In this document: piece after piece, positions 1 to 13,012 of the stretch
Layout of the letters: every line of letters starts with the position of its first letter
How positions within the stretch are numbered: position 1 is the stretch's first letter
Source of the DNA: a virus
Taxonomy: Duplodnaviria > Heunggongvirae > Uroviricota > Caudoviricetes
Direction: 5' to 3' (one strand)
Virus record (IMG/VR): IMGVR_UViG_2700989400_000004
Location: 1 to 64,000 of that record
DNA length: 64,000 bases
The notes under the pieces: model-generated
What the model was told of the DNA's origin: nothing
Database searches by the model: none
The model's input: the letters and a program-made list of their open reading frames with translations, nothing else
Translations under genes and position numbers: made by a program

Positions 1-201
1 TCATCGTCTCGGTTTGTCCGGTTTCCGCCACTGATACGGCCTCACAACATCATGCTGGTGGCGTTCCTGTTGCAGCACAACGGAAACAGGCACTGAACAC
101 CTGTTAATTTTGCTTCGTGGCGGCTTGATTCCGGTAATGCTGCGGATCATCTCCAGCAAATCGGCTTCGGTGATGGTCATGGCTTTCCTGTCAGCACTCA
201 T
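1..201 (-). CDS. hypothetical small protein
   Basis: Complete 66-codon ORF with stop at 1-3; internal ATG (MTITEADLL) preceded by GGAAAG; no motif recognised. Confidence 0.25.
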   Translation of the reverse strand: MSADRKAMTITEADLLEMIRSITGIKPPRSKINRCSVPVSVVLQQERHQHDVVRPYQWRKPDKPRR

Positions 202-229: not shown

Positions 230-814
230 TTATCCCGTTTTAGTGACTAACCATTGCAGAATAACGATAATTAAATATGTTAATGTACCAGTTCCAAGAA
301 GTATTAATAATTGATAACAACGTAGAGCAATATTACTAATCGATTTTTGCATTACGATATTCACTAACTCAGCCACACACTCTTTAGATCTTATCGATAG
401 AATGCTTGGAACTTCTCTATTTATTGATAATATTTCACATTGAATAGACTCACCTGGTGCGAGGCTTTCAAGCCTGATAATATAGCGACCATCCTTTTCA
501 ATATTTTCTTCAACATGGTGGACAGGCCAAAAATTAATATGCATTGGCTTATAGTTAAAAACCAATGATATATTAGTAGCACTTTCTCGCCCTTCATTAA
601 CAAGAATAATCGATCGTGTATACACCAATTGTGAGTTAGATATTACTTCACCACTGGTGTCCCGTAATGGTTCATGAACAAGAAAAGTAAATCCATGCTG
701 ATAACCATAGGATAACTTTGCCTTGCTTTTAAATCTGTTATTCAGCATCCATGTAAAAATAGCAATAAAAAAAGAAAATATTTCTTTCCCATAAAGACTA
801 AAAAAACTCATCAC
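230..814 (-). CDS. hypothetical membrane protein with hydrophobic segments at both termini
   Basis: 194 aa ORF in markedly AT-rich DNA; hydrophobic N- and C-terminal stretches; no family recognised. Confidence 0.45.
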   Translation of the reverse strand: MMSFFSLYGKEIFSFFIAIFTWMLNNRFKSKAKLSYGYQHGFTFLVHEPLRDTSGEVISNSQLVYTRSIILVNEGRESATNISLVFNYKPMHINFWPVHHVEENIEKDGRYIIRLESLAPGESIQCEILSINREVPSILSIRSKECVAELVNIVMQKSISNIALRCYQLLILLGTGTLTYLIIVILQWLVTKTG

Positions 815-929: not shown

Positions 930-1146
930 AAGGTTGACACACTTGACACTTTTCCGCGAAAAACCTTAACAAAACTTAGCATTTCTAAGCATGGCAACTT
1001 GACACTTTTCGCGATTTTTTCTGCTTTTTGATGTGGCAAACATGGCGCAAGACCAGTAATGACGGGGCTTACAGCGAGGTTGACACTTTTTCGTGTTCAG
1101 AGTGTAAAGTGTCAACCTTGCAAGCTGCTCAACTTGACACTTTTTG
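930..1146. repeat. cluster of TTGACAC(TTTT) repeats: five direct copies plus one inverted
   Basis: Direct copies near 933, 943, 999, 1080 and 1134; inverted GTGTCAA at 1110; seen directly in sequence. Confidence 0.6.
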
Positions 1147-1152
1147 CGGCCG

Positions 1153-1695
1153 TTAATGACCTGTTTTCTCCCATTCAGCCAGGGCGTTTAGTCCTGCCTC
1201 GCTCCATGATTCAAGTTCATCAGGATAATCACCTGCAACATAGCAGAGTTCACAGCGCAGCATACGAATTGCCAGCCTGGCATTACCCCGCAAATTGTAT
1301 TGTTCAAAGTAATGCTGTCCTTCATCATCCTCAAGGCAGATAGCACCATCATCAAGAAAGTGTGCTTCCCAGCCTAATTCCCCGGCTGCATCCTGCACAC
1401 ACTGCTTTATGTCATCGTCCGTTACTGGCGCAGGAATTTTACCGTCTCTGTCCCTGACAGCTTTCCAGAACTCGCCCCACGTCATTTCCAGCGTTCTCTC
1501 AGGCCACATTTCAGAAACAGTGTCTTTTCCCTGTGATGGTGGGCTGTTTCGCCACTCTGTCGCCTCCATATCAATTTTTTTACCCGACATGACCACCTCG
1601 CCTTTCTCGATCCAGTCGTAAACTGTCTGGCGGCTTACACCTTTGTATTTGGCGTATTCGGCTTTACTCATCAACATGTGGCTCACCTCATGCAT
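1153..1695 (-). CDS. helix-turn-helix DNA-binding protein (Nu1/excisionase-like N-terminal HTH)
   Basis: N-terminal MSKAEYAKYKGVSRQTVYDWIEKGEV resembles winged-HTH of small-terminase/excisionase-type proteins; start uncertain. Confidence 0.45.
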   Translation of the reverse strand: MHEVSHMLMSKAEYAKYKGVSRQTVYDWIEKGEVVMSGKKIDMEATEWRNSPPSQGKDTVSEMWPERTLEMTWGEFWKAVRDRDGKIPAPVTDDDIKQCVQDAAGELGWEAHFLDDGAICLEDDEGQHYFEQYNLRGNARLAIRMLRCELCYVAGDYPDELESWSEAGLNALAEWEKTGH

Positions 1696-1776
1696 ATACG
1701 ATAAACATTCACTTCATGCGAAAAAGGAATTCGTTGTGGGTATGGCGGAGAGGGGCAATCACCGCCCCTTGCGGAT

Positions 1777-4998: not shown

Positions 4999-5149
4999 AT
5001 CGGCACGTAAAAATAAAACAGTCTCATTGTCAGTTACCTGTCAGCTTTTATGCCTTTTCCGGGTGGGATGGCTGACAGTAGTCAATCGTAATACAAAATT
5101 TGAACAACCTTTTTTTCTGTACTCTATAAGGCGTAAAAAAACATTTTTT

Positions 5150-5430
5150 ACCGGGATATCGGGATATAAACAAAAAAACCCCATTTATTTCATAGCGTTA
5201 TGTGATTTTTCATATCCCGCCATATCCCGGTAAGTTTTTTTTTGCTTATGCATCAATAAGATATTGCGGGATACATTCCGGGATACGGTTATTTTGTTTG
5301 TTTTACAACCACTCGTAAACCTAAATACCGGGATACGGCGGGATACAGCGGGATACGACAACAACACATAAATAACTGATATTTATGCAATATATTTTTC
5401 ATATCCCGATATCCCGCATATCCCGCGATT
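5150..5430. repeat. iteron cluster, about 12 copies of CGGGATA in both orientations (putative satellite replication origin)
   Basis: AT-rich 300 bp immediately 3' of the primase gene; direct and inverted CGGGATA/TATCCCG groups near 5152, 5210, 5265, 5330 and 5400. Confidence 0.6.
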
Positions 5431-5457: not shown

Positions 5458-7590
5458 CTATTCGTCTTCTGCCTGATCAATCAGCACGATAAATCGCTGC
5501 TGTGTTCCGTTAATCTTCACTGTTTTCGATGTCCAGCGACCAGGTTCTGCACAAACCAGCATTCCGGCTTCTTCCAGCGCCTGACACCCAAAGTTCCTGG
5601 ATATACCGCATAAAATTTCGCTATCAAACACTGACGGGATAATGTGATATTCGGGTTTTCCATCCTCACGCTTACCGCTGACAAGATAGCCTGCAAGATT
5701 GCTTATACGGGATGCATAGTGGTTATCCATATCCCCATTGCTTTTCCCGTAGGTATAAGGCTGAAAACGACTCAGGGCATGGCGCTGAATAAAGTCACGG
5801 GCGCGACTGATGACCTGATATTTTTCCCGGTTTTCCAGCCCGAAATCCTGTAGCCAGTCATCAAAAGCCCGTTGCGTTGCTTCCCGGCATTCTTCAGCTG
5901 TCCAGCCAGTAATTGCGGTGGCAAGCTCTCCGGCTGCATCCAGCATGGCGAATCGCGATGCCACTCGCCTTACCTGTGACGAGGCATTTTCAGGCAGATT
6001 TCCCAGCCAGGCATTTTCTTTATCTGAAGTGGTGTTGATAGCCAGCTCCTTGTGAGCGGATAACCAGCGCACCCACTCACGTCCCGCAGCGCCACAATAA
6101 TTTGATGAAAGTCGCTTTATGGCCCTGGCATGTTGATCACCATCGTCATAACCGTTAAACACCGTTGTATCGGTAAAGGGAATGCTTAGCAGTCGCACCA
6201 GTTGCCCTGCCTTTGGGGCAATTCCCCCTTTTAACAGGAAGGTTTCAAAATCTTCTTCTCCGGTGCTTAGTGCCGCTATTTTCCAGCGCATTACCGCACG
6301 ATTACCGCCGTCCTTGCGCCCCTGAATCCTGCCCACACCGTTAAACAGGCTGTAGGCGGATTGCGCAATGTCATTAACCCTTCCTCCCTGACCAATTTCA
6401 TCAATAGGGATAAAACCGTCATTACGTGCAGCTGCTTCCACTGTCAGCCCGTGCCGGGTGGCATCCCACGAGAGTTTAAGCATTTCAGGGTCGCCATAAA
6501 GGCTGGTGGCGGCCTCCACAGTCGTGGTTTTCCCCGCTGACGACTGCGCGAAAAGATGAATACCAAAACAACTACCACCCACAAGGGAATTTAGCGGGGC
6601 TGCCAGCCCGACCAGCACCCCAAGCATCATTGAGTGATTGCCACGCATCAGAGAAGCAACATTATTTCGCCATTCATGCACCGTGCCCCTGACAATATAG
6701 CCTTTGATGGCGGCAGATCCGCCGCAGAATGCTACGGGACGGTCAGGCACACCAATCACCTCGCCATCAGGCATAACATAGGCTCCACAATGCCAACCTG
6801 CTGTTGATGTGACCTCCCACACCGTGCGATCTCCATGACGTTGCAGGTATTCCGCCAGTTTGTTCAGTAAATGGGCACTGGTAGTGATTGCAACTCCCCG
6901 CCCACGTAATCGCGCCCATCCTGCGGGCATACCGATTTCATTGCGCGGCATCGCTTCGTAAATAATTTTTTGTGTCCCTTCCGGGATCATTTCAATGATC
7001 AGATACGCTTCCCTTCCGTCGTTACCAATACCTGCCGTGCGCATCCGGTCACTCAGCCAGGTTTCTTTATAATTCATCTCCTCTGCCCTGGTGTTGGGGA
7101 TTGGCTCGATATACCAGAGCGCCCCGTCTTTTTCGGTAATATGCGGTTTCATGGGGTCTGTTTTACCGGGTGATCCACCAGCTATTCCGATTCCTTCAGG
7201 AATGGTTTCCCCGCGCTCTGTCTGTTCGCGGATCCGTTGCAGGTAGTCGCGCCAGTTCTCCGGCTCCCGGTCGGTGATGCCTTTGTATAATTTCGCATCC
7301 TGTACGCCAGCCAGCGCCAGCTTTTCAGCGATAGCATTGATCTGGATTGGCTCTATCTCCCCCGCGATATAAACACGCGCAAAGCGGCGCTCATCGTCGA
7401 TAATGCGGATATTAGCCAGATCTGCCAGTTGCGTTGGCCCCAGGTAAACAGGTGGCACGTTATCGCCGTGTTTTCGTCCTTCGCTTTCAATCCAGTGTTG
7501 AGCATGGGCGTAAGCATCCGTCCCGGCAAAAATGATTACCTCGGTGAATTTATCCTTTGGCTGATATTTTAAATTCGGTGCGTTTTTCAC
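5458..7590 (-). CDS. primase/helicase replication protein (Toprim plus NTPase, P4 alpha-like)
   Basis: 710 aa; Walker A-like AQSSAGKTT; domain order typical of satellite primase-helicases. Confidence 0.8.
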   Translation of the reverse strand: MKNAPNLKYQPKDKFTEVIIFAGTDAYAHAQHWIESEGRKHGDNVPPVYLGPTQLADLANIRIIDDERRFARVYIAGEIEPIQINAIAEKLALAGVQDAKLYKGITDREPENWRDYLQRIREQTERGETIPEGIGIAGGSPGKTDPMKPHITEKDGALWYIEPIPNTRAEEMNYKETWLSDRMRTAGIGNDGREAYLIIEMIPEGTQKIIYEAMPRNEIGMPAGWARLRGRGVAITTSAHLLNKLAEYLQRHGDRTVWEVTSTAGWHCGAYVMPDGEVIGVPDRPVAFCGGSAAIKGYIVRGTVHEWRNNVASLMRGNHSMMLGVLVGLAAPLNSLVGGSCFGIHLFAQSSAGKTTTVEAATSLYGDPEMLKLSWDATRHGLTVEAAARNDGFIPIDEIGQGGRVNDIAQSAYSLFNGVGRIQGRKDGGNRAVMRWKIAALSTGEEDFETFLLKGGIAPKAGQLVRLLSIPFTDTTVFNGYDDGDQHARAIKRLSSNYCGAAGREWVRWLSAHKELAINTTSDKENAWLGNLPENASSQVRRVASRFAMLDAAGELATAITGWTAEECREATQRAFDDWLQDFGLENREKYQVISRARDFIQRHALSRFQPYTYGKSNGDMDNHYASRISNLAGYLVSGKREDGKPEYHIIPSVFDSEILCGISRNFGCQALEEAGMLVCAEPGRWTSKTVKINGTQQRFIVLIDQAEDE

Positions 7591-10011: not shown

Positions 10012-10812
10012 TTACACATGGCTGTTTTCCTCCATGCGACGGGCTAACCAACGCTGCGAAAGACGAATTAATTCAGCTTTCCGCTGGTGGTAGTCCTGGC
10101 CTAACTCAATCAGCGTGATATTGCTCTGCTCAAGGTAAGAAAGATGCTCAAGCTGCAACGTGCTCATGTGGTCGCGTGGTTCGCCTGTGATGCCGTTCGC
10201 CTGCGCCCACTGTTTTGCAGTCATGCCACCCAGCACGATACGCGCCAGCATATTGGCTTCCGTGGTGTAGTGGTGCTGTAGAGTGTTTTTACCCAGCTCA
10301 GCCCGGTACGCCTCCAGCGCGGCACACATTGGCTTAAAGTAGCTGGCAACTGTGATACGGGCTTTCAGTTCCCGGCGTAACACTGCGGAACGCACTGGCG
10401 CTACCTTGTGTAGCTCCTCCTCGCATTTGATAAAGTACTGACGAACGGCGCGGCCCTGTTCGGTGCGTTCGACCATCGCCAGTTCTTTCGCCATGTTCAC
10501 TGTGATGATGTACTCAAGAGCTGTTTGCTGGCGAGATTTTGCGCTCACCGGATCGGGTCGGCTCAAATATTCAACAACCTCATAATCCACGCCTTCCGTG
10601 AACCCGTATTCTTCAATGCGCCCCTTGATCCACGAACGGAAAACGCGCCCTACACCTAACGCCTTATGTAACGCTCTGGCGCTAACAATAGTGGTTTCAC
10701 GCCCACCAATAACGCCGGAAATAACCGGAATAATTTCAGCGAAATTTTGCAGATTCTGTTTTTCAGGCCGAACGAAGCCCCGCCCCTGTACAGGCGTATA
10801 TCCAGTATTCAT
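10012..10812 (-). CDS. phage antirepressor-like protein (Bro-N/AntA-type N-terminus)
   Basis: N-terminal IIPVISGVIGGRETTIVSARALHKALGV...EYGFTEGVDYEV. Confidence 0.6.
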   Translation of the reverse strand: MNTGYTPVQGRGFVRPEKQNLQNFAEIIPVISGVIGGRETTIVSARALHKALGVGRVFRSWIKGRIEEYGFTEGVDYEVVEYLSRPDPVSAKSRQQTALEYIITVNMAKELAMVERTEQGRAVRQYFIKCEEELHKVAPVRSAVLRRELKARITVASYFKPMCAALEAYRAELGKNTLQHHYTTEANMLARIVLGGMTAKQWAQANGITGEPRDHMSTLQLEHLSYLEQSNITLIELGQDYHQRKAELIRLSQRWLARRMEENSHV

Positions 10813-10864
10813 GGTTAAATCTCTGTATTAGTGGATGGGAGGCGGCTGTGTGCCGCCAGCCTGA

Positions 10865-11053
10865 TTAGTGAACTGCCTCGCGGCTGTCCTTCCATGCCAG
10901 AACTTCGGATAAAGACCAGCCAACGGAACGACCACCGAGTTTACGCCGTGATGGGAATTGTCCGGCTTTTTCCAGGCGGTAGCGGCATGAACGGCTCAGG
11001 CCTGTAAGTTGCTGACATTCTTTTTCACGTATAAAGCGATCTGTGCTTAACAC
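10865..11053 (-). CDS. alpA: AlpA family transcriptional regulator
   Basis: 62 aa; LTGLSRSCRYRLEKAGQFPSRRKLGGRSVGWSLSEVLAW is the AlpA-type HTH signature. Confidence 0.75.
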   Translation of the reverse strand: MLSTDRFIREKECQQLTGLSRSCRYRLEKAGQFPSRRKLGGRSVGWSLSEVLAWKDSREAVH

Positions 11054-12910: not shown

Positions 12911-13005
12911 ACCGGCGCAGAGGAGACAATGCCGGATTTAAGACGCGGATGCACTGCTGTGTGTACTGTAGAGTCTGGCGGATGTCGACAGACTCTATTT
13001 TTTTA
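12911..13005 (+). ncRNA. mcaS: McaS (IsrA) small regulatory RNA
   Basis: Matches recalled McaS sequence ACCGGCGCAGAGGAGACAAUGCCGGAUUUAAGACGCGGAUG..., ends in a GAGTCTG...CAGACTC hairpin plus U-tract, convergent with abgR as in K-12. Confidence 0.7.
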
Positions 13006-13012
13006 TGCAGTT

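Follow-up and report, generated by a model that had tools for sequence, protein, structure and literature searches.

A conserved winged-helix protein and its array of TTGACAC sites in an Escherichia coli phage satellite: a candidate packaging-specificity module

The stretch analysed here comprises positions 1 to 64,000 of the IMG/VR record IMGVR_UViG_2700989400_000004 (Caudoviricetes) and will be referred to as the window. At its start, where the sequence shows complete identity to the E. coli strain 357900 chromosome, lies a satellite island whose last core unit consists of a gene for a 174-amino-acid (aa) protein and, directly behind it, a 215-base-pair (bp) block of TTGACAC sites. The features of this pair are as follows.

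1153 to 1677, minus strand: gene of the 174-aa protein, with a Nu1/Xis-type winged helix-turn-helix (HTH; residues 1-44), a disordered linker (45-60) and an orphan alpha/beta C-terminal domain (61-170) (PHROGs, RefSeq, AlphaFold model)
931 to 1146, no strand: conserved cis block of 215 bp with six sites, a cosB-like array (edges of E. coli matches, conservation in relatives)
1134 to 1144, plus strand: site 1, closest to the gene, TTGACACTTTT, on the gene strand AAAAGTGTCAA (motif scan)
1105 to 1115, minus strand: site 2, the inverted copy TTGACACTTTA (inverted repeat with site 3; order +,-,+ also in relatives)
1080 to 1090, plus strand: site 3 (motif scan, relatives)
1053 to 1076, no strand: conserved element CCAGTAATGACGGGGCTTACAGCG in the spacer that separates sites 3 and 4, a candidate cut site or host-factor site (arrays of relatives)
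999 to 1009, plus strand: site 4 (motif scan, relatives)
943 to 953, plus strand: site 5 (motif scan, relatives)
934 to 940, plus strand: site 6, core only, overlapping the flank of site 5 (motif scan)

The 174-aa protein and its array

The TTGACAC motif occurs 12 times in the window, compared to 6.55 copies expected from shuffling, and half of these copies fall within 207 bp (934-1140). By chance about 0.02 copies would be expected in such a span, and a Poisson estimate for six copies is in the range of 1e-13 per span. Copies on the plus strand start at 934, 943, 999, 1080 and 1134, whereas the single copy on the minus strand occupies 1109-1115; together with the copy at 1080 the latter forms a 16-nucleotide (nt) inverted repeat with 94% complementarity. 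The original prediction had described five direct TTGACAC(TTTT) repeats beside an HTH protein. The plus-strand repeats are real, but the sixth, inverted copy had been overlooked, and the TTTT extension is found on four of the plus-strand copies. Likewise, protein gene and repeats are indeed adjacent, but the array is located at the 3' end of the gene, which stops 7 nt short of the first site, and not upstream of it.

Read on the gene strand, the complete site of approximately 12 nt is A4-5GTGTCAA(C/G). The block has sharp edges, as matches in E. coli genomes start or stop at window positions 931/932 and 1146. Comparison with 33 distinct relatives yielded an identity to the window of 98% at the motif positions, 88% between the motifs and 37% in the downstream flank. 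An Rfam scan of the array gave no family match. Within the spacer, the core CGYCATTACTGG is retained in arrays of E. coli, E. ruysiae, Raoultella and Pantoea. The part from 1050 to 1077 is identical at 26 of 28 positions to the spacer that separates the iterons from the GATC 7-mers in RepFIB/P1-like oriR, a stretch which is present in more than 400 plasmids and phage-plasmids.

The protein had originally been read as 180 aa long; a length of 174 aa is indicated by the family N-terminus MLMSKAEY, which is invariant, by the RefSeq entry and by a GAGGTG Shine-Dalgarno sequence preceding the ATG at 1677. Pfam returned only a sub-threshold match to HTH_17. In PHROGs, residues 4-45 matched phrog_57, annotated as 'terminase small subunit' (3e-6), followed by excisionase families. 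The AlphaFold (AF2) model, with a mean predicted local distance difference test score (pLDDT) of 87.5, shows a winged HTH and a confident alpha/beta domain joined by the disordered linker, and Foldseek matched the head of the protein to mycobacteriophage Xis and to BldC. The Nu1/excisionase-like HTH of the original prediction is borne out by these three lines of evidence. The N-terminal 40 residues, including the recognition helix VSRQTVYDW, are nearly invariant in the family, and the remainder diverges. A tblastn search of 50,697 phage records gave no match to the 174-aa protein, and four protein accessions that were searched for found no mention in the literature searched.

Using the protein as query, 17 enterobacterial loci were found in which the gene is followed by a motif array, the lowest protein identity being 37% (Escherichia, Rouxiella, Raoultella, Buttiauxella, Pantoea, Pseudocitrobacter, Lelliottia and Enterobacter). 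Since the pair is also present in Klebsiella and Serratia, it occurs in at least 10 enterobacterial genera altogether; in E. coli, it was detected in 166 out of 5,426 complete genomes. The order of the sites (+,-,+, gap, +,+) is preserved, site 1 is kept 11-23 nt past the stop codon in other genera, and almost no copies of the motif are found elsewhere in the 20-kb loci. Satellites of Klebsiella and Pantoea show the same pattern with the variant TTTACAC. In three loci (L006, L009 and L016) cargo is inserted between gene and array. The module accompanies four different replicases, namely DUF927 (in the window), a 601-aa 'DNA primase family' protein, a RepA-type helicase and P4-alpha-like D5 primases. 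By comparison, then, protein and sites form a conserved pair.

Several further observations were made on relatives of the module. In Klebsiella (L038-L041) and Pantoea (L034-L037) they reside in satellites with baseplate and tail genes (Dit_like, Pam3_gp18, spike). The Klebsiella satellites are inserted inside prophage head genes and thus represent helper-embedded satellites; their arrays are followed by a DUF5681 gene, for which PHROGs gives no annotated function. In Lelliottia (L018, 8165-9361) a fusion joins the DNA-binding head of the family to a 398-aa protein encoded in the vicinity of a VgrG gene.

TTGACAC at the cosB position of related loci

Scanning viral contigs for the inverted motif pair recovered satellites and, in addition, loci in which the array is positioned upstream of the gene. 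In one of these, L100, the gene encodes a full-length phrog_57 small terminase (2.7e-23) with the recognition helix VTRQTIYDW, which is 40% identical to the small terminase (TerS) of Serratia phage BZS1 and of Citrobacter phage phiNP. In L092, L050, L104 and the E. coli hpt island L155, it encodes a protein of 186-209 aa with the helix SRQALY(S/T/N)W; in the E. coli and L092-type members of this group the first ~90 residues are TerS-like. Profile alignment with hhalign connected the head of the 174-aa protein to the head of the L100 TerS (DUF1441/Nu1-type) with a probability of 95% and to the L092 protein with 95.7%, and the helix in all these loci follows the pattern (S/T)RQxxYxW, as it does in the 174-aa protein.

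All five loci (L100, L092, L104, L050 and L155) share one order: cosQ (GGGTCCTTCC), about 20 nt, cosN (GGGCATTGCGCGCC), about 40 nt, the motif copies and then the start codon. The copies after cosN are numerous, comprise TTGACAC, TTTACAC and TTGACAG and occur in both orientations. Their cosN matches the cohesive end of BZS1, the annotated left end of which is GCATTGCGCGCC. Phages with the same cosQ and cosN differ in both repeat and helix: BZS1 and phiNP carry GGTAACA repeats and a TerS helix SRKTVTxW, whereas an E. coli prophage (DUF1441 TerS, gpA, gpW, portal) carries about ten TGTCCCA copies at the same place and the helix NRKTISRW. The covariation of helix and repeat marks TTGACAC as an R-type (cosB) site, read by a helix that is also present in the 174-aa protein. 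The related cos regions clearly demonstrate the motif in the position of an R-type site, and the window contains the cosB-like part of a lambda-type cos, an array of small-terminase R sites. The cos-type packaging region postulated originally is therefore supported for its cosB-like part, the motif being in the cosB position in relatives, but not for cosN and cosQ, neither of which was found. A cos of the TTGACAC type was found in satellites or islands only and in no case beside a large-terminase gene; therefore, this specificity looks private to satellites.

The related cos regions also deserve description in their own right. In L155 (9700-10588), L092, L104, L050, L126, L133 and L138, cosQ and cosN are identical to those of lambdoid prophages with DUF1441-type TerS and gpA, and about eight TTGACAC/TTGACAG sites make up the cosB of these satellites. 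Behind it comes the gene for a 195-aa protein, TerS-like over its N-terminal ~90 residues. This protein looks like an undescribed analogue of the Rpp packaging proteins for the DUF1441-TerS helper group, no literature search having been aimed at the family. Each DUF1441-type phage lineage has its own short cosB repeat, either TGTCCCA (~10 copies; L152 3730-4000, E. coli prophage) or GGTAACA. The GGTAACA repeats of phiNP (L149 2880-3260) and BZS1 (L150 1-240) run on inside terS, where they encode GNxQGN peptide repeats. A cos-plus-HTH module was further observed between tail-fibre-assembly and sheath genes (L092 8600-11300) and beside a VgrG gene (L104 3500-8200).

The host island and its cargo

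The island carrying the module has the following additional features.

1 to 201, minus strand: second cargo open reading frame, 66 aa (annotation)
230 to 814, minus strand: variable cargo gene behind the array, 194 aa, without family match (different genes here in other islands)
5148 to 5430, no strand: CGGGATAT iteron/A-tract array right after the primase gene, the likely satellite replication origin
5458 to 7590, minus strand: DUF927 primase-helicase, the satellite replicase (Pfam/PHROGs)
10811 to 10999, minus strand: AlpA-like small HTH regulator (L001 26012-26200)
11368 to 12597, minus strand: tyrosine integrase (L001 26569-27798)
12619 to 12687, no strand: att repeat AATTAACTACACCATTAACTACACCG... 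(direct repeat, partner 345 nt before the window start)

A perfect direct repeat of 26 nt bounds the element, and as its att partner is located 345 nt before the start of the window, the island has a length of 12,964 bp. The att repeat in the window contains a doubled ATTAACTACACC motif. The gene for the McaS/IsrA small RNA (12911-13006) follows about 220 nt beyond this repeat, which places the island between smrA and mcaS; in strain 357900 it is found between smrA and mcaS/abgR. It encodes a tyrosine integrase, the small AlpA-like HTH protein, an AntA/B antirepressor, Icd-like and DUF4222 proteins, the DUF927 primase-helicase, ProQ/FinO, PerC and several unknown proteins in a row, beyond which lie the gene and array of the module and, last, two small unknown genes. 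The region from 5148 to 5430 is densely packed with CGGGATAT/ATATCCCG repeats in both orientations together with A-tracts and is likely to be the replication origin of the satellite. The origins of phage-inducible chromosomal islands (PICIs) lie after the primase gene.

Co-oriented genes for integrase, AlpA-type regulator and primase, a size within ~10-20 kb and att repeats characterize the element as a PICI, and no virion structural genes were annotated or matched by Pfam/PHROGs among the island genes checked; the annotation of the island also contains no terL. Gram-negative PICI satellites show the same layout (PMC6092414; 10.1101/2022.07.18.500453). The suggestion of the original prediction that a satellite is involved is thus supported by gene content and att repeats. 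The core of the island ends with the module, behind which the variable 3' cargo begins, and PICI packaging genes sit at that distal position (PMC11364771).

The region behind the array is a hotspot for cargo (L043 6657-8613, L148 17991-19483, L042 7119-8726; before the array in L016, 11121-14054). The genes found there include an AAA ATPase + DUF4435 pair (PARIS-like) in the O104:H4 strain HUSEC2011, a DUF4747 pair, a pair of 332 and 571 aa and other unknown pairs. Next to the island in strain 357900, outside the window, lies a complete lambdoid prophage (L160 8287-12477, Rac site) with a non-lambda packaging set of the headful type (364-aa TerS, DUF4055 portal, P22-type capsid); its further genes include those for a subtilase-type AB5 toxin (eplA) and for enterotoxin.

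Packaging role, rival explanations and known systems

On the basis of these comparisons, we consider it very probable that the 174-aa protein binds the six sites and that both derive from small-terminase/cosB systems. Since the repeats are of the small-terminase (R-type) kind and the protein is their likely reader, the pair fits a packaging-redirection module of the Rpp kind, and an Rpp- or satellite-TerS-like role as packaging-specificity module of this satellite family is, in our view, somewhat favoured over its opposite. Within the 215-bp array, the six A4-5GTGTCAA(C/G) sites would be contacted by the winged HTH, giving rise to a nucleoprotein assembly that corresponds to the complex formed at cosB in lambda-like phages. 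The private C-terminal domain might then dock on the terminase of a helper, so that satellite DNA instead of helper DNA would be selected for packaging, as it is by Rpp in EcCICFT073. As neither cosQ nor cosN is present, the helper is probably not lambda-like, and the cut might be made between sites 3 and 4, inside the conserved spacer, in a layout resembling that of the SPP1 pac site, or be non-specific (headful). Physical binding, the contact with a terminase and the position of the cut are what we infer from the compared sequences. The locus probably represents an undescribed packaging route for such islands. More tentatively, and with the odds against it, the 174-aa family could be a third, undescribed class of satellite packaging adaptor, combining a private head and R site (xTGACAC) with an orphan C-terminal domain for the capture of a terminase that is non-lambda and possibly headful, and using the six-site array with its central spacer as a pac-like site without a helper cosN.

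Several results weigh against a role in packaging. Searches of the island and of 76 loci that contain the 174-aa gene revealed no paired cosQ and cosN of the lambda or BZS1 type, and a P2-type cos was absent from the window. By eye the spacer resembles the cosN of BZS1 and E. coli (ACTGGTCTTGCGCC versus ACGGGCATTGCGCGCC), but local alignments were no better than those of shuffled sequences, and it was not accepted as cosN. When the array of the window and the Lelliottia-type spacer were compared by blastn to the 50,697 phage records, no cos region was matched and the spacers were common to no phage; mimicry of a helper cos was rejected. The array downstream of its gene is opposite to every known TerS or Rpp arrangement. 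The C-terminal domain showed no similarity to TerS, RppC, solved folds or viral model folds, and therefore its contact with a terminase is purely a matter of what we infer from context. Finally, no helper phage was found; the neighbouring prophage has neither a cluster of the motif nor any similarity to the 174-aa protein and was rejected for this role.

A hairpin (GGGGCGGTGATTGCCCC, 1751-1767, minus strand) about 90 nt before the start codon was also considered as a cos, but it matches lambda cosN at only 8 of 12 positions, lacks a cosQ and shows no conservation in genera other than Escherichia; probably the gene upstream ends here in a terminator-like structure. Integrase arm or excisionase sites were dismissed as an explanation of the array, which is situated about 1.3 kb from the att repeat.

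The pair might instead act in transcription: a Xis/MerR-type regulator could coat the array cooperatively, as BldC does, and repress, activate or insulate between the late operon and the defence cargo, with no part in packaging. We regard this as a fair but unlikely rival. It would agree with the position of the array, which separates the last core gene from the cargo; Xis and BldC, which the head resembles most closely in structure, bind direct-repeat arrays; a promoter-like site at 886-858 (minus strand), the best one for the cargo gene, is just past the array; and no cut site was found. In the three loci with cargo inserted, however, the cargo separates gene and array, so a position upstream of the cargo is not a constant property of the array; moreover, conservation is seen for the array but for neither the cargo nor its promoter, a 215-bp block holding six sites and a conserved spacer by far exceeds the size of an operator, and in relatives the motif is clearly at the cosB position. 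Another explanation is a cosB that has lost cosQ and cosN and now serves as a sponge, drawing a redirected terminase away from satellites with a TTGACAC cosB (195-aa family), or has no current function. The restriction of TTGACAC-type cos regions to satellites and islands, never beside a large-terminase gene, would agree with such a decoy or relic, as would an island with the same site specificity but without a cut site. Nevertheless, conservation of the pair across genera at 37-90% protein identity, with motif positions at 98%, points to purifying selection for a function that the pair itself performs, and a relic is not expected to retain six sites and an orphan C-terminal domain of high model confidence, which makes this explanation quite improbable.

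There is very little reason to regard the repeats as iterons for a satellite initiator. Direct and inverted short repeats are iteron-like in layout, and the 28-nt stretch of the spacer recalls a plasmid origin, but this P1-like element is missing in many arrays of the family, the GC content of 39-47% is not that of an AT-rich region, the module is unchanged beside four unrelated replicases, and the island has the separate iteron/A-tract array after its primase gene. Independence from the replicase and the presence of a second, origin-like array were the grounds for rejecting the iteron explanation. Least credible of all are stacked sigma-70 promoters with TTGACA as the -35 element for neighbouring genes, which had been proposed originally for a downstream membrane protein gene. 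Every copy does contain the TTGACA consensus hexamer; yet none has an acceptable -10 element at a distance of 16-18 nt, no promoter-like site is found in 931-1146, five of the six copies face the 3' end of the convergent 174-aa gene and thus away from the supposed target, the conserved unit A4-5GTGTCAA(C/G) is longer than the hexamer, and the cargo behind the array varies between islands.

In many enterobacterial PICIs no packaging module can be recognised. The authors who described EcCIMP1 class their island as 'Type C' and describe this type as abundant (PMC11773190). If the 174-aa family were indeed a third class of adaptor, this would explain the mobilisation of abundant PICIs without Rpp, TerS and cos. 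The locus offers a concrete and testable candidate, consisting of one protein, one 215-bp block and a site defined to 12 nt. From the comparison, a modular picture is also suggested, in which satellites may retain the private head and R site and exchange the C-terminal part according to the terminase of the helper. As the module borders a hotspot for PARIS-like and other defence cargo, it bears on the spread of such genes.

Among known systems, Rpp is the closest in design. A PICI with Rpp retains cosQ and cosN of its helper but has its own cosB (PMC6739421). Like Rpp (Fillol-Salom et al. 2019, PMC6739421), the 174-aa protein is a small PICI protein with a TerS-like winged HTH and a site specificity of its own, and its gene likewise has a distal position in the island. 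Unlike Rpp, which comprises 135-153 aa and ends in a three-helix coiled coil, it has 174 aa and an alpha/beta orphan domain; the dimerisation domain of RppC (residues 65-139), whose C-terminus forms three helices (PMC6739421), has no counterpart. Rpp uses a single R3 site, and its gene lies downstream of cosQ-cosN-R3 with the start ~100 nt from the cohesive end, whereas here six sites are located downstream of the gene and neither cosQ nor cosN precedes it. Alignment of the family profile to RppA with hhalign was weak (probability 26% over 30 residues) and does not establish homology, and RppC was not recovered by sequence and profile searches of the PDB with the 174-aa protein. The packaging-redirection module suggested originally thus keeps its TerS-type head and cosB-like motif, but beyond the head it belongs to neither the Rpp nor the TerS family, and it has no cosN or cosQ.

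A possible connection to Rpp exists at the level of the site. Murialdo and Feiss proposed an R3-PICI at bp 48-65 (PMC9026076). We read the cos1-rppA region of EcCICFT073 (RppA, c1503 region) from the CFT073 genome, where the proposed R3-PICI reads AGGTGACACCACCACCAC and contains GTGACAC, identical to TTGACAC at 6 of 7 positions; this resemblance is a lead, not a test. In the cosB of the EcCICFT073 island the proposed R3-PICI AGGTGACACC resembles GGTTGACAC. A private head with an xTGACAC R site would be common to the 174-aa and 195-aa families, and the proposed R3 of RppA resembles the motif, the homology of the heads being weak.

With lambda Nu1 and the DUF1441/phrog_57 TerS proteins (BZS1, phiNP, E. 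coli prophages) the 174-aa protein shares the kind of head, multiple short R sites in both orientations and the covariation of helix and repeat. It differs from them in that the match is confined to residues 4-45, with no full-length homology, no oligomerisation or TerL-binding parts, no adjacent large terminase and no cosN beside the array. The 195-aa satellite proteins (P0263 family, e.g. L155) have the same motif and a nearly identical helix (SRQALYNW versus SRQTVYDW) and are likewise encoded at the end of DUF927/PerC satellites, but upstream of their genes both cosQ and cosN are complete and of the helper type, and their C-terminal parts are unrelated to those of the 174-aa family. In the pac site of SPP1, arranged as pacL-pacC-pacR, G1P is the bound protein, and TerS of the Staphylococcus aureus pathogenicity islands (SaPIs), acting at pac, is a satellite specificity factor. 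Sites flanking a central spacer and a specificity factor encoded by the satellite are features which the module has in common with these systems, although the 174-aa protein has no homology to their TerS proteins. BldC and Xis, finally, provide the best structural matches of the N-terminal domain and also act at head-to-tail repeated sites; they are single-domain regulators or excisionases, whereas the 174-aa protein has a second domain, a satellite context and sites homologous to R sites.

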